From: a virus | Strand: one strand, 5' to 3' | Length of the DNA: 64,000 bases | Virus record (IMG/VR): IMGVR_UViG_3300031652_000001 | Shown: positions 11,000-62,720 of the stretch, in pieces | How the letters are laid out: each line of letters begins with the position of its first letter | Position numbering within the stretch: position 1 is the stretch's first letter | Made by a program: the position numbers and the translations under genes | Notes under the pieces: model-generated | Told to the model about the DNA's origin: nothing | Databases searched by the model: none | The model's input: only the letters and a program-made list of their open reading frames with translations

Positions 11000-12409
11000 T
11001 CAAGACCAGCCACCTTCACGATAACAACAAAAGCTTGTTCCATAAGCATCACAATAACTGTCAAGATCCGAATAGTGTTCACCACCAGCGGAATAACAAT
11101 CATTGGCATAAAGACATGCCATCGAAAATTTCAAAGTACACGCATCAGGAACAATTTCCTCTGTTTCACTGTCACTGGTATCCGTTTCAGTCTCTTCTTC
11201 CGTATCCTCAATCGTTTCAGAATCAATATCCGTATCGTATTCAGTATCTTGCTCTGTTTCAGTATCCACCTCCGTATCAACAGGCAATTTCATAACAGCA
11301 CAACATAACCTTCCTTCTAATTCACCCCTACATACCCCCTCGGCTGTAACAAATCCCCACTCTGGATCTGGATAAGGAACATCCTCACATTTTTCCTTAT
11401 CCAAAGACAAACTTGGATGCATACAGAAATTACAATTCGGCTCTGTATCGCTATCAGTATCAAAGTCCGTGTCGGTGTCGGTGTCGGTGTCCGTATCAGT
11501 GTCCGTGTCAGTATCGGTATCGGTATCGGTGTCGGTGTCGGTGTCCGTGTCCGTATCTGTGTCCGTGTCAGTATCGGTATCGGTATCGGTGTCGGTGTCG
11601 GTGTCCGTGTCCGTATCTGTGTCCGTGTCCGTGTCCGTGTCGGTATCGGTATCGATATCAACATCCATACTACCTGAATCCTCACCAGCATCCAGATCTA
11701 TTCCGGTATCCCCATCTGTACCAACATCTTCTTCCGAGCCTGTGTCTGTATCAACGCTGTCATTGGTATCGGTATCAGTATCGGTATCGGTATCAGTATC
11801 AGTATCGGTATCGGTATCGGTATCGGTATCGGTGTCGGTGTCGGTGTCCGAGTCCGAGTCCGTATCTGTGTCCGTGTCCGTGTCCGTGTCGCTGTCAGCA
11901 TTACCGTCTGCATCAGTGTCTGTGTCCATATCACTATCCGCATCAGAATCACCATCCCCATCCCCATCGGCATCCCCATCGGCATCGGCATCGGCATCGG
12001 CATCGGCATCGGCATCCATATTCATATCCGTGTCAGTGTCCGCATCGGCATCAGTGTCCGCATCGGCATCAGTGTCCGCATCGGCATCCGCATCGGCATC
12101 GGCATCGGCATCGGCATCGGCATAGGTATCCGCACCACCATCAATACCGGCATCAAAATCACTGTCCGTATCGATATCTGTATCAAACTCAAAATCAAAA
12201 GAATCTGTCTCAGATTCAGAGCCTTCTACCCGGATATCCGTTCCAGTATCTATCGAATCTATATCGCAAATCATCCTATTTATAGCACTTGAAGAATCAT
12301 CTTCCTCGGTACCAAAAAAAGATGCATCACCGGCATCCAGCTCATCCCCATTGTCCTCTAAACAGGCCACCAAAAAAATAGCAACCAAAACAAAAAATGT
12401 CGTCCTCAT
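11000..12409 (-). CDS. Asp-rich (DT/DA repeat) lipoprotein with Cys-rich C-terminal modules
   Basis: Signal peptide with lipobox LVAC, long (DT)n/(DA)n tracts, small Cys-rich modules. Confidence 0.85.
11462..12122. repeat. Coding hexamer repeats (Asp-Thr/Asp-Ala) with a higher-order 60-nt duplication
   Basis: gtgtcg/gtatcg/gcatcg units; 11521-11569 recurs at 11581-11629. Confidence 0.9.
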
Positions 12410-12492
12410 ATCTTCCTCCTTATACCTAATGATAAGGATTTATAACATGAACGCAAGTTCACTTTCTCAAAAAATAACAAAAAATAGATTTA

Positions 12493-28731: not shown

Positions 28732-28897
28732 ATTCTATCGAAGATCTTCCAGTGGATCGTCGTATTCTCCAAGCACCCAACCGAGAGCACTGGCGACACC
28801 ATCCAGAAAGGCATCATCCTCGTTCTCTTCTCTCATCTTCAATGCCTCTTCGTAAATCCTCTGAATATCTGGTCTGTCCATTTACCACCTCATTTTG

Positions 28898-29283
28898 AGG
28901 ACACGCCGGGAATCGAACCCGGGTCCGAATATCGTCATCGGCATGAATCTTCCACATGCTTGGTCTGTCAATATACCCTCATCTCAATGGCAACAGACAA
29001 CCATCGAAATATTCGTTTCTGGAATATCGCTTTCGCTCGCCACTACTTACGACGTCACTGCATGCATCCCAGAAAATACAGCAGCTATCCTGTTGAAAAT
29101 GACGCCCTTATGCCTACACAGGCACTCGACAATCGGACGGCTCAAGCAGCTATTTCAAACTGTTGAACAGGTGTGTTGTCTCTTTTGGCAACTGTTTTTG
29201 AGCATTCTTTTTAACCCGCTGAATACACAAAGCGGGACATGCTCCACACGGAATCATGATACCCGTCGAATCCAATCGTGCCC
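28898..29283 (-). ncRNA. ssrA: tmRNA; tag peptide AKRDNTPVQQFEIAA* (29189-29142)
   Basis: 5' GGGCACGAUUGGAUUCGAC, G3-U70 acceptor stem, 3' T arm CCGGG-UUCGAUU-CCCGG, tag ending in AA-stop. Confidence 0.93.
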
Positions 29284-42461: not shown

Positions 42462-42788
42462 TCAATCATCAAAATCCGGAATCTCCACCGTCTTTCCCGA
42501 AAGGAAATGAGTGCTGTCAGTAAGGTATCGAATCTTCCCATCCGTCACAAATGAATGACAAAGGTTCTCACCGGTGCGTGCACGAATACTCGGTTTCACA
42601 GTTGGTTTGTCATCCTCAACACCGGAAACCGTCCAACGCGGCCGTGGTCCCCTCACCCTCACTGAATGAGCAAAGCCACACCCCGGACAATGAAAGGCAT
42701 ATTGTTTTTCTGTTTCATTATCCATAAGCACTATGAACTTCATATTAACCTCACTCTTGATGTTATTCTTTCGGAATATCTTTACCAT
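42462..42788 (-). CDS. DUF6527-like protein
   Basis: FHCPGC...H...PT..PSI...CHSFVTDGKI.YL.DSTH. Confidence 0.75.
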   Translation of the reverse strand: MVKIFRKNNIKSEVNMKFIVLMDNETEKQYAFHCPGCGFAHSVRVRGPRPRWTVSGVEDDKPTVKPSIRARTGENLCHSFVTDGKIRYLTDSTHFLSGKTVEIPDFDD

Positions 42789-43288
42789 CAGACATTCTTC
42801 AGACCTTTTGCCTTTCTCTCTCTCGTCATGGCCCTTCTCACCGCAGCCAAATCTTTTTTCAGTAACCGGATTTGCTCTTGAACCGTTATGACCTCACCAT
42901 CTTCTTCATCGTCTTCAAAATCACCTGCCAAGTATCTCACCAAGTCTTTCTCTTCTCTCTTCAATGCCTGAAGTTTAGTGGTAAACAACCACTCAAACTT
43001 ACTTGGCCTCAAAGAACCATCGTCGAGAAGATGAAGGACAGTCTTGTCGCTTTTGGATATACTTTTAGCCCAACCATAGTCGAAATGCTTCTTCGATTTC
43101 TTGACCCACGTATACTTATTTTTGCAAGTAAGATATGCACGTCTTTCATACGATCCAGAATCAGGATACCCAGGTATCGGCTTGAAATCACACCGACGCT
43201 GGATGCTTGTGATGATCCACTCCCTAAAAAAAATCTTCCCTTCATCAACAAGCGCACTCCAAAAAGACTGTCCAACTTTAGGTTTCAT
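42788..43288 (-). CDS. Hypothetical protein
   Basis: ATGA-coupled to 43285-43839. Confidence 0.6.
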   Translation of the reverse strand: MKPKVGQSFWSALVDEGKIFFREWIITSIQRRCDFKPIPGYPDSGSYERRAYLTCKNKYTWVKKSKKHFDYGWAKSISKSDKTVLHLLDDGSLRPSKFEWLFTTKLQALKREEKDLVRYLAGDFEDDEEDGEVITVQEQIRLLKKDLAAVRRAMTRERKAKGLKNV

Positions 43289-43839
43289 TCATTACCACCC
43301 TCTCTATCCGAAATTTTTCCAGGTAACAAATCGGCCGGATCTACTTTAGGACGCTTCTTAATATCCCCTTCTGAAATTTTTGGGATTCCACTTTCCACGG
43401 GAGCAAAAATAGGGACTTCTCCCTTTTTGATTTTTCTGAGTGTCGTTATCATCCGGCTCCCAAGAATAATGCCCTTTTCCCAGCTTGCTCTACCATCAGG
43501 AGTCAAAAGATTTAAATCTGTACGGTTCAGTACTTGTTGAGACCGAAGAACTTTCCTAAACGCAGTCTTCCTGGTTCTTTCTGCATAGTCTGGATTCGAC
43601 TCATCTTCCAAAATACGTATTCCCAGCCTTTCGCATTTACATACCAATAATCTACCTGTCTGATCGGAAAGATCCTCTATCTTCTTTGCCAATTTAACTG
43701 TCTCTAGTTGATACCTAGGAAAATCATCCTCTCTTTTTACACCGTGTATCTCTTCACATCTACTTGGAGAAATCCATTCTCCTTTTTTTAAAAGTGTAAC
43801 ATCAAGAGGATAAAACTTGACTTGCTGTACAACATCCAT
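43285..43839 (-). CDS. Hypothetical protein directly downstream of the pentamer array (candidate accessory protein)
   Basis: Starts ~20 nt after the last repeat; basic, helical C-terminal half. Confidence 0.65.
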   Translation of the reverse strand: MDVVQQVKFYPLDVTLLKKGEWISPSRCEEIHGVKREDDFPRYQLETVKLAKKIEDLSDQTGRLLVCKCERLGIRILEDESNPDYAERTRKTAFRKVLRSQQVLNRTDLNLLTPDGRASWEKGIILGSRMITTLRKIKKGEVPIFAPVESGIPKISEGDIKKRPKVDPADLLPGKISDREGGNE

Positions 43840-43860
43840 TGAAAAACCTTTTGTCTTTAA

Positions 43861-44815
43861 TTAGACCTCAAGCTTTGAAGTGATCTCTACCCGAGGTACC
43901 CTTCCGATCCATTCCTTTCCATTCCCTTCCTCTCCCATCCGTTCCACTCCGGTCCGTTCCTCTCCAATCCAGTATTAGACCTCAGGCTTTGACATGATCT
44001 CCACCCGAGGCACCCTTCCTCTCCATTCCTCTCCATTCCTCTCCGTTCCAATCCGTTCCCGTCCGATCCGCTCCAGTCCTATCCCGTCTCAGACCTCAGG
44101 TTTTGAAGCGATCTCCACCTGAGGTACCCTTCCTCTCCCTTCCGATCCATTCCCTTCCGCTGCTTTCCGATCCCTTCCGGTCCGAACCCGTCCCTTCCTT
44201 TACAATCCCTTCCATTCCAGTCCGATCCCATGTTAGACCTCAGGCTTTGACATGATCTCCACCTGAAGTACCCTTCCTTTCCTTTCCGGTCCTTTCCCAT
44301 CCATTCCTCCCCAATCCAATCCAGTCCTTTCCACTTCATTCCCCTCCAATCCAGTCCTTTCCACTTCATTCCCCTCCTATCCAATCTCAGACCTCAGGTT
44401 TTGACATGATCTCCACCTGAAGTACCCTTCCTCTCCTTTCCCTTCCAATCCTATCCGTTCCAGTCCGTTCCCTTCCCCTCCAATCCAGTATTAGACCTCA
44501 GGCTTTGAAGTGATCTCTACCCGAGGTACCCTTCCTTTCCATTCCGGTCCTATCCGTTCCAATCCTGTCCGCTCCCGTCCGATCCGCTCCAGTCCAATCC
44601 AGTCTCAGACCTCAGACTTTGAAGTGATCTCCACCCGAGGTACCCTTCCTCTCCCTTCCATTCCTCCCCTGTCCAATCCATTCCATTCCACTCCGTTCCT
44701 CTCCCCTCCAGTATTAGACCTCAGGCTTTGACATGATCTCCACCTGAAGTACCCTTCCTCTCCCTTCCTTTCCTATCCTTTCCTTTCCATTCCATTCCTC
44801 TCCTATCCGGTCCCT
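43861..44815 (-). repeat. Array of 8 units: (NN-GGA)12-22 tract plus 44-nt hairpin repeat (candidate guide-RNA array)
   Basis: Repeats start at 43861, 43973, 44087, 44231, 44385, 44489, 44603 and 44712. The tracts hold 14, 14, 20, 22, 12, 14, 13 and 12 phased pentamers; 114 of 121 have exact TCC (GGA on the minus strand). Confidence 0.95.
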
Positions 44816-44833
44816 TTAATCACCATTTTACTG

Positions 44834-45412
44834 CTAAAGAAACTCGACGTTGAATCGACCAAATCTCGGTCGATAATCACCGACCCCCTTGTCGCCGCAC
44901 ACCTCCAAAATTGACTGAAGCTTTTGCTCCGTAAATGGAGCACCATAGGCAATGACACCCTCCGCAACCCACCCCTTGAACATCGGCCTCGTCCTAAGGA
45001 CCTTCTTCTTGGCGACGTTGACCAAACACTGATACATGCAGTTCATGTCACCATATCGTTTTCTGGGATCCGACGGACCTTCGAAATCCGTCAACTTGAA
45101 GGGCTCCTCCACCAAAATTGTCTGAACGGTTTCGGCTTTCGAAATCTTCGCCTCATTCCATCCTGCATCTCGTATCATCGCGACAATATGATCCACCGGA
45201 ATGATGTATTTGCCATCGCCATCCATAATGAGACCACCAAAAAATTCCGCCTTGGCGATGGCCTCATAATTCTCGGAAGTTTTCTTTTTTCCACCACGGT
45301 CTGTCTCTTCCTTCACACGTTGTGATGCCGGATCCATTGGATTCGCCAATCGATTGTTGTGTTGAAGATACGCAGAAAGCCCAACAAATCTCACCCTCAT
45401 CTCTTTTTTCAT
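44834..45412 (-). CDS. RAMP/Cas7-like small protein heading the pentamer array
   Basis: N-terminal strand VRFVGLSAYLQHN, RTRPMF..W, and C-terminal Gly-rich loop GVGDYRPRFGRFNV, as in RAMP-fold proteins; the stop is 18 nt from the array. Confidence 0.7.
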   Translation of the reverse strand: MKKEMRVRFVGLSAYLQHNNRLANPMDPASQRVKEETDRGGKKKTSENYEAIAKAEFFGGLIMDGDGKYIIPVDHIVAMIRDAGWNEAKISKAETVQTILVEEPFKLTDFEGPSDPRKRYGDMNCMYQCLVNVAKKKVLRTRPMFKGWVAEGVIAYGAPFTEQKLQSILEVCGDKGVGDYRPRFGRFNVEFL

Positions 45413-45472
45413 GATCCTATCCTCTTTCTATATCTGTTTCTTTTTGGTCCCTATTGACCAAAACTCACCATC

Positions 45473-45916
45473 TTATTCGACCTTTTCTCTATCTTCCCCC
45501 ATTGAAGCTCTCACCACCATAGCTTTCGCTATTTCTCCGTGCTTTGCTTCACAAATCCTAATTGCCTCATCAATGTGACTCATCGCCTGAATCAACGTCG
45601 TAGCATTAGCTGAATTCACCCATGTCTGAAGGAGGCTAGCAAGCAATCCCTTTTGCTCATCAAGAGCACCACAAACCCCATGAAGACTCAGTCCAAGGCT
45701 CTTTGTTTTTTCGACATCAGAAAAAACAACTTTCTCAAGACACTGAATCGGCCACCAACCAAACCTGGTTCCGTAGAGCTCTTCACCCTCATCGGATTTT
45801 ACATCCATAACATGACAAGTTTCACCAATACTGTTTCGGGTCACAGGACGTTCAACGATCCACTTTCGAGTGAAACTGTTATCAACAATCCTTACCAGAT
45901 CCCCTTTTGACGGCAT
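45473..45916 (-). CDS. Hypothetical protein
   Basis: GGGAG RBS before MPSKGD. Confidence 0.55.
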   Translation of the reverse strand: MPSKGDLVRIVDNSFTRKWIVERPVTRNSIGETCHVMDVKSDEGEELYGTRFGWWPIQCLEKVVFSDVEKTKSLGLSLHGVCGALDEQKGLLASLLQTWVNSANATTLIQAMSHIDEAIRICEAKHGEIAKAMVVRASMGEDREKVE

Positions 45917-46259
45917 GATTGCTCCCTTCATACGCCCGGATGAGAGCTGAAAAGATATCGTTAATATCAGCAGGTTTGTAAACAATCTGGACACCAGGAT
46001 AATGTGCTTTTGAATCCCCCGTATGGAGGACAACCGGTATCGGAGACATCTCGACGACTCGATAACCACTGTCCTTCGTCGGACAGTCGAGGTCACTGAG
46101 AACGATATCATACTTGCCGGTCTTGATCTCGGATATACCAGCATCCGTCGAAAGCGCCACAGTAATGCTTTTCCAGTTTCTTCGCAAACACCTGACCAGC
46201 ATCCGCGCTACCGGCTCTTCATCCTCGATGACCAAAAGATTCATTTCGTTCGTTCTCAT
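45882..46259 (-). CDS. Single-domain response regulator (REC)
   Basis: LLVIEDE, DIVLSD (phosphoacceptor), VVLHTG and KP. Confidence 0.85.
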   Translation of the reverse strand: MRTNEMNLLVIEDEEPVARMLVRCLRRNWKSITVALSTDAGISEIKTGKYDIVLSDLDCPTKDSGYRVVEMSPIPVVLHTGDSKAHYPGVQIVYKPADINDIFSALIRAYEGSNHAVKRGSGKDC

Positions 46260-46302
46260 ATCTCCCCCGTTTCTTCGGGCACCTAGCCCGGCATCTCCTA
46301 TG

Positions 46303-46340
46303 AGTCTATCCATTAAAAACGCGAAGTCAAGTTCACTTTT
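46303..46340 (-). promoter_or_regulatory. Phage promoter (GAAC-TTGACT family)
   Basis: TTGACT-16 nt-TAGACT; heads the REC / RAMP-like / array operon. Confidence 0.65.
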
Positions 46341-48141: not shown

Positions 48142-48180
48142 AGCTTAGTTCCGACTAAGGGTGAAGTCAAGTTCATGTTT
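48142..48180 (-). promoter_or_regulatory. Phage promoter (GAAC-TTGACT family)
   Basis: TTGACT-17 nt-TAAGCT. Confidence 0.7.
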
Positions 48181-51302: not shown

Positions 51303-51340
51303 AGCTTAATTCGGTTTTAAAGTGAAGTCAAGTTCGTGTT
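51303..51340 (-). promoter_or_regulatory. Phage promoter (GAAC-TTGACT family)
   Basis: TTGACT-17 nt-TAAGCT. Confidence 0.7.
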
Positions 51341-51487
51341 TTACTCTTCAACACAACAAGATGAGTTTTTTTTATCCATATGACCAAGCTCACACACTCT
51401 CATGCCGACCAGAAATCCTACCCCTCCCATCATCATCAATAAAAAAAAACAGGATAACCAACATCACCTTAGGAAACTCAATGTCCA

Positions 51488-62681: not shown

Positions 62682-62720
62682 AGGGTAAGACAAGGCAAAT
62701 GTGAAGTCAAGTTCACTTTT
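62682..62720 (-). promoter_or_regulatory. Phage promoter (GAAC-TTGACT family)
   Basis: TTGACT-17 nt-TACCCT. Confidence 0.6.

Follow-up and report, generated by a model that had tools for sequence, protein, structure and literature searches.

VIPR was first described in 2026 as a CRISPR-related, RNA-guided silencer of DNA (10.64898/2026.04.26.720920). Its code of fixed GGY and variable NN, the one-base skip, the placement of the skips on wobble positions and the silencing itself were all demonstrated by experiment, and the published guides have 9-16 repeats, with NNNGG, YNNNG and NNNNG reported as alternative repeats (10.64898/2026.04.26.720920). A change of GGY to GGA was among the perturbations made in SUSP1, and the GGY perturbation as a whole abolished silencing (10.64898/2026.04.26.720920). 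A further report (10.64898/2026.04.26.720927) places the third base of the SUSP1 unit in a pocket of E71, M72, C173, T175 and R179 that excludes purines, finds K82 to be required for silencing, and describes pairing with RNA in vitro as well. Two other papers state that satellites redirect the SUSP1 Vipr by means of their own decoy GGY guides (10.64898/2026.10.15.759431) and that 21 clusters have non-GGY motifs, with GAC, CAC, WGT and TGH among the repeats (10.64898/2026.10.21.760802). A strict natural GGA scaffold is not named in the accessible texts of the VIPR papers, and the logos in figs. S17 (10.64898/2026.04.26.720920) and S10 (10.64898/2026.10.21.760802) may show one.

The 64-kb stretch of viral DNA analyzed here (the window) carries eight tracts of five-base units on the minus strand (44816-43862), each followed by a near-constant 40-nt tail and all lying between the genes listed in Table 1. 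These tracts very likely represent guide RNAs belonging to a VIPR system of the phage. The locus has the defining features of VIPR that can be tested, the scaffold agreeing only as a "related consensus". There is a homologous stand-alone RAMP protein with thumb and G-loop, an adjacent set of non-coding five-base repeats (13-15 units in six of the eight tracts, 21 and 23 in two), an invariant structured 3' tail on all eight tracts, and a vap accessory gene that is vap1-like by profile. The fixed motif GGA fits the "related consensus" wording, and strict GGY is absent.

With the SUSP1 type II VIPR the locus shares a homologous Vipr, a vap1-like partner, carriage by a phage and the lack of a second RAMP match in the window, as well as five-base units with fixed GG and variable NN and a structured 3' tail on each guide. 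It differs from SUSP1 in having eight guides between vipr and vap1, two of them of 21-23 units. The architecture is type-II-like, although in the protein tree a grouping of this clade with SUSP1 is not strongly supported. A non-GGY scaffold beside a Vipr gene is also common to the alternative-repeat VIPRs, and A-NN-GG formally fits NNNGG, but the position is fixed as A here rather than relaxed. The RAMP fold and a guide array with constant handles recall Cas7/Csm3 of class 1 CRISPR; here, however, the code is non-contiguous and lies within the repeat, and there is a single small RAMP. Neither an array of contiguous spacers between repeats nor a set of several cas genes was found at the locus, and the Vipr profile matched only once in the window.

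Table 1. Coordinates of the guide tracts and associated features in the window
Feature	Position	Strand	Description
Promoter-like motif	46317..46340	minus	TTGACT in short inverted repeat; ahead of the vipr-bearing gene run; putative role
vipr	44834..45412	minus	192-aa stand-alone RAMP (Cas7-like) protein
vrRNA T8	44715..44816	minus	13 A-NN-GG units (44816-44752) and hairpin tail
vrRNA T7	44606..44712	minus	14 units (44712-44643) and tail
vrRNA T6	44492..44603	minus	15 units (44603-44529) and tail
vrRNA T5	44388..44489	minus	13 units (44489-44425) and tail
vrRNA T4	44234..44385	minus	23 units (44385-44271) with 30-nt internal duplication, and tail
vrRNA T3	44090..44231	minus	21 units (44231-44127), three imperfect, and tail
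vrRNA T2	43976..44087	minus	15 units (44087-44013) and tail
vrRNA T1	43862..43973	minus	15 units (43973-43899) and last tail
vap1-like accessory gene	43285..43839	minus	184 aa; downstream of the array

Guide tracts and hairpin tails

An independent parse of the minus strand matched, unit for unit, all eight NN strings given in the original prediction, which had rightly left out a last unit that is invariant (NN = AG in 8/8 tracts) and is part of the unit counts given here. Perfect A-NN-GG units make up 122 of the 129, the other seven being imperfect, and the fixed A, the third scaffold base, is kept in 126/129; in SUSP1 that base is a pyrimidine, with no A in the 18 units seen (L209). The longest GGA-NN run comprises 14 units, compared with at most five in 1000 first-order Markov resamples and two in the remainder of the window outside the array; these runs are beyond chance. 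All 16 NN types are present, carrying 3.79 of 4 bits over 121 units.

The ends of the tracts are less free than their interiors. The third-last unit begins with A in all eight tracts and the second-last ends in A in seven of eight (p ~4e-4 for each against interior frequencies), while among the seven tracts that come after a tail, unit 1 begins with C in five and unit 2 with T in six. Other GGA arrays have fixed end units too; at L053 the last three are fixed in 16/16 tracts. Since the tract ends are partly fixed, the 24-44 informative bases per tract first proposed, on 12-22 variable units, are an overcount, and the free code is about 18-34 bases once unit 1, the final three units and the T4 duplicate are subtracted, a cut that was chosen after the data had been seen. 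That duplicate is a stretch of six units (30 nt) repeated within T4, and T6 and T2 have four consecutive units in common.

The 40-nt tail that closes each of the eight tracts is predicted to fold as a hairpin. Six of its 13 predicted pairs vary among the eight copies, always by exchange of Watson-Crick and G-U pairing and with none broken; two-sided changes were absent from all pairs in the eight copies. Folding energies on the minus strand range from -13.0 to -17.6 kcal/mol and are always lower than those of the opposite strand. A pseudoknot can be drawn, with a second helix that is invariant across copies, and is only possible; in this, and in having no Rfam match to its sequence, the tail differs from that of SUSP1. 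A search for a sigma-70-type site at the array found none.

Vipr, its neighbors and the GGA scaffold

The vipr gene ends 18 bases upstream of the array. Its product had a single match among 177,635 PDB sequences, the SUSP1 Vipr (E 3.2e-19, residues 4-191), and matched phrog_4652 with an E value of 1e-30. The predicted model has a pLDDT of 86.5, and its nearest folds are RAMPs of the Cas7/Csm3/Cmr kind. Sixty-five relatives were found among 110 candidates, six of them at 54-72% identity. The RNA-binding residues H17, K33, R138, D177 and R179 of SUSP1 are kept as H18, K34, R142, D179 and R181, as are the thumb and G-loop residues that set the geometry. The third-base pocket differs, with D74, H75 and K175 in place of E71, M72 and C173; the G-loop is one residue shorter than in SUSP1, and K82 is replaced by W85 or a neighbor. 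From these replacements we infer that the changed pocket takes A.

The gene downstream of the array was compared using a profile of 14 ORFs from other loci, which matched this ORF (E 6.2e-20) and also the gene that follows vipr in SUSP1 (E 6.5e-13), and of whose 60 matches 58 lay directly downstream of a vipr gene. Because the profile seeds were chosen by likeness to this ORF, the independent part of this result is the SUSP1 match together with the gene order. Compared pairwise, this ORF and the SUSP1 gene reached an E value of only 0.005, and the predicted fold of the protein is of low confidence (pLDDT 33.5). Pfam and PADLOC searches of the locus genes gave no match except for one response-regulator domain. 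This receiver domain is encoded by a stand-alone gene (45882-46313, minus strand) two genes upstream of vipr and right behind the promoter-like motif. The TTGAC motif occurs five times in the window, each time on the minus strand and ahead of minus-strand genes (12443-12466, 46317-46340, 48157-48180, 51318-51341 and 62697-62720), and resembles a phage promoter with an overlapping operator.

The window has the dense small ORFs on one strand of a viral context, and the Vipr protein is also recorded on a 162-kb contig. Seventeen tRNA genes and a tmRNA gene (28897-29283) lie on the minus strand between 10267 and 29283. The tmRNA, compared with 301 genomes in the phylum of the genome of L183, matched only in short pieces and gave no clue to the host. 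A 469-aa protein (11000-12409, minus strand) begins with a signal-like segment, carries long repeats of Asp-Thr and of Asp-Ala, and is Cys-rich at its end; against adhesin models it gave low-complexity matches far below the cut-off.

Viral contigs were scanned for eight GGA-NN units, which gave at least 126 loci, with full flanks for 80. A GGA array adjoins a Vipr gene in at least 20 of the 126 loci listed, representing by our own count at least 13 distinct proteins; most of the others among those listed are simple repeats with at most five NN types and no Vipr gene. Of 54 Vipr loci in cellular or proviral DNA, 15 or more units were present in 29, one of which was GGA. GGA is a minority form among Vipr scaffolds. 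A tree was built from 68 of 90 proteins after 22 near-duplicates were dropped; on this quick tree, which has long branches and in which unlabelled rows are counted as other, GGA needs six changes. Each side of one split, supported at 95%, contains both GGA and GGY rows, and GGA therefore does not form a single clade. An AU test on the same tree (p 4e-60) was not relied on, being inflated by unlabelled close relatives left out of the GGA set.

The Vipr described here falls with six other proteins in a clade (support 100) whose members, 7/90 in all, are the only ones to be one residue short in the G-loop. As a general determinant of GGA this deletion was rejected, since none of the ten other GGA-labelled proteins carries it; they keep a normal loop, and the deletion is therefore at most this clade's route to GGA. 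A column scan of 11 GGA against 24 GGY proteins had a best p of 1e-4 among 1504 tests and is confounded by kinship, and we make no claim from it. In the SUSP1 K82 column, K is present in 17/24 GGY and 1/11 GGA proteins, a difference that is not significant after 1504 tests and is likewise confounded by kinship.

Other arrays seen in these scans varied in form. Twenty-six viral Vipr loci (L001-L026; 30-33% identity) are near-copies of one lineage, with the array upstream of the gene and a mostly mixed third base, A, C and T all being common. Large tail-less GGA arrays punctuated by a short non-GG unit were seen at L053 (minus strand, 16 tracts parsed), L051, L062 and L096, adjoining a divergent, long-branch Vipr group. 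In L058 (2981, minus-strand count) and L148 (301), GGA tracts run for 35-39 units with little or no interruption, far beyond the length of the published guides, and a tRNA-like stretch follows the tract in L148. At L061 (3001-3090) an 18-unit GGA tract, possibly a stand-alone guide, is separated by several kb from the vipr gene (L059) that its contig carries.

Guide variation and the search for targets

Contigs of four runs were compared over 42700-46300, the phage-bearing runs being salt-marsh and wetland metagenomes. The set of guides varies from one population to another while the genes on either side remain ~97-99% identical, with flank differences of 14 in 1196 bases for contig X2 and 27 in 1483 bases for X5. 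In X2 the last tail is joined to a T4-like end. The X5 array shows 25 differences over 184 bases, and inserted in it is a tract that the window lacks and that was read by hand as five A-NN-GG units and one C-NN-GG unit. X1, which may be the source of the window, has loose ends with other tracts. Taken with the six-unit repeat inside T4 and the units that T6 and T2 have in common, these population differences suggest slippage in a five-base register and exchange between tails. That the array differs between populations of near-identical phage bears on the origin of new guides.

A self-target scan of the window on both strands at gaps 0-3, with 30 shuffles each, gave nothing clear of the shuffles, and the guides compared with 1.17 Mb of fetched loci and with their own array gave nothing above them. 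The excess at one gap size by which the target code was originally to be checked is therefore lacking in both collections, neither of which amounts to well-sampled related data. Amino-acid readings of the guides found no match among 65 Vipr proteins. When 97 tracts of 21 other GGA loci were compared with the fetched DNA, 27, 29, 32 and 29 reached 80% at gaps 0, 1, 2 and 3, counts so alike that no gap stands out and there is no gap-1 excess.

Seven collection scans were made by exact match at gap 1, using guides T1, T2, T3, T4 and T6. A 24-base pattern of T6 had no exact gap-1 match in genomes, nor did 20 bases of T1, 18 of T2 and 20 of T4 in viral contigs. The 16-base scan of T3 returned 51 matches, the best with 12/24 held-out bases and the mean 6.4 over 50 scored, and that of T6 returned one, with 1/14 held-out bases; both results are chance-like. 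The blank scans say little because an alignment scan and a protein scan did not find the clade of this phage in the viral set.

A 22-base pattern of T1 had a single match, on a 1572-bp metagenome contig (L028), covering 22/22 searched bases (11/11 units). The matched strand is the coding strand of an ORF, whose third codon positions coincide with the skipped bases, and the unmatched T1 units are those found to be partly fixed in the tracts. None of eight held-out bases match, which brings the total to 22/30, under the 80% cut-off of 10.64898/2026.04.26.720920. Chance T1 matches would be expected at ~0.03-0.1 by our own estimate, the collection size in bases not being given, and seven scans were made. 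The L028 gene had no Pfam match, no homologue among 14 candidates and atlas scores below 0.9; no link to a mobile element was found, and its neighbor had no plasmid match. The match is probably due to chance, and L028 is unlikely to be a real target of T1.

Proposed mechanism, alternatives and meaning

The original prediction read the NN pairs as a target code with a one-base gap on third codon positions. This is the published VIPR mechanism (10.64898/2026.04.26.720920), and the parts of a VIPR are present here, so the idea was right in kind and already in print; by analogy it may be extended to these guides. The support for this reading comes from family membership rather than from a target found here.

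We consider it highly probable that the eight RNAs load Vipr filaments that bind double-stranded DNA at two of every three bases and silence a competing element. By this mechanism a phage of ~160 kb would carry a complete type-II-like VIPR module, consisting of vipr, eight tailed guides and the vap1-like gene, all on the minus strand. Judging from SUSP1, the array would be transcribed and cut into RNAs of ~100-150 nt, and Vipr would polymerize on each with one subunit per five bases, burying GGA and displaying NN. The NN pairs would read two of every three bases in double-stranded DNA, with the skip tending to fall on the wobble position, and binding would silence genes of a satellite, prophage or rival phage competing in the same host. 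At this locus, unit 1 and the final two or three units of a tract may serve in part as scaffold, and new guides could arise by slippage in the five-base register and recombination between tails.

A genuine VIPR might instead be read by a changed rule (a skip of another length, targeting of RNA, or reading confined to core units), in which case one-base-gap decoding would be wrong here. Pocket and clamp residues that differ from SUSP1, partly fixed tract ends, two tracts beyond the published length range, the lack of a convincing gap-1 target in exact scans of five guides and the pairing of SUSP1 VIPR with RNA in vitro (10.64898/2026.04.26.720927) all lean in this direction. Against it, the residues of thumb and G-loop on which the geometry depends are conserved, and the unit is still five bases; the blank collection scans, being exact-match and at gap 1 only, do not favor another gap. 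We regard a changed rule as improbable. More improbable still is a decaying or inactive VIPR whose strings are drifting repeats with no current targets. The T4 duplication, the 7/129 imperfect units, the units shared by T6 and T2 and the failure to find a target in the window, the fetched loci or the five-guide exact scans would agree with decay, but the vipr and vap1-like frames are intact, the eight tails show only pair-preserving changes, and changes are concentrated at NN, with well-formed new tracts in other populations. A simple satellite or coding repeat unrelated to the neighboring gene is scarcely credible: GGA-NN patterns do fit simple repeats as well, as at most of the 126 loci listed, but all 16 NN types, structured tails, the adjacent vipr and vap1-like genes, a longest stop-free frame of 104 codons and a period of five out of step with codons argue against it.

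Since the decoding rule was already published, the locus adds no new mechanism to guide-directed silencing by Vipr, and its value lies in the GGA variant. The near-exclusive A at a position where SUSP1 excludes purines makes it a natural test case for the scaffold specificity of Vipr, and this GGA VIPR is a candidate orthogonal partner to that of SUSP1. Tentatively, and with rather more doubt than confidence, we propose that GGY has given way to GGA repeatedly and in step with changes in the protein, a change of scaffold that would render the Vipr described here, together with its guides, orthogonal to GGY systems. If so, this salt-marsh clade would have reached GGA by its own route, through a shorter G-loop and a changed pocket, and a second VIPR channel that does not cross-react would be available for engineering. 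The phage would then ignore the decoy GGY guides of satellites, and the scaffold letter itself would be a trait in the arms race.
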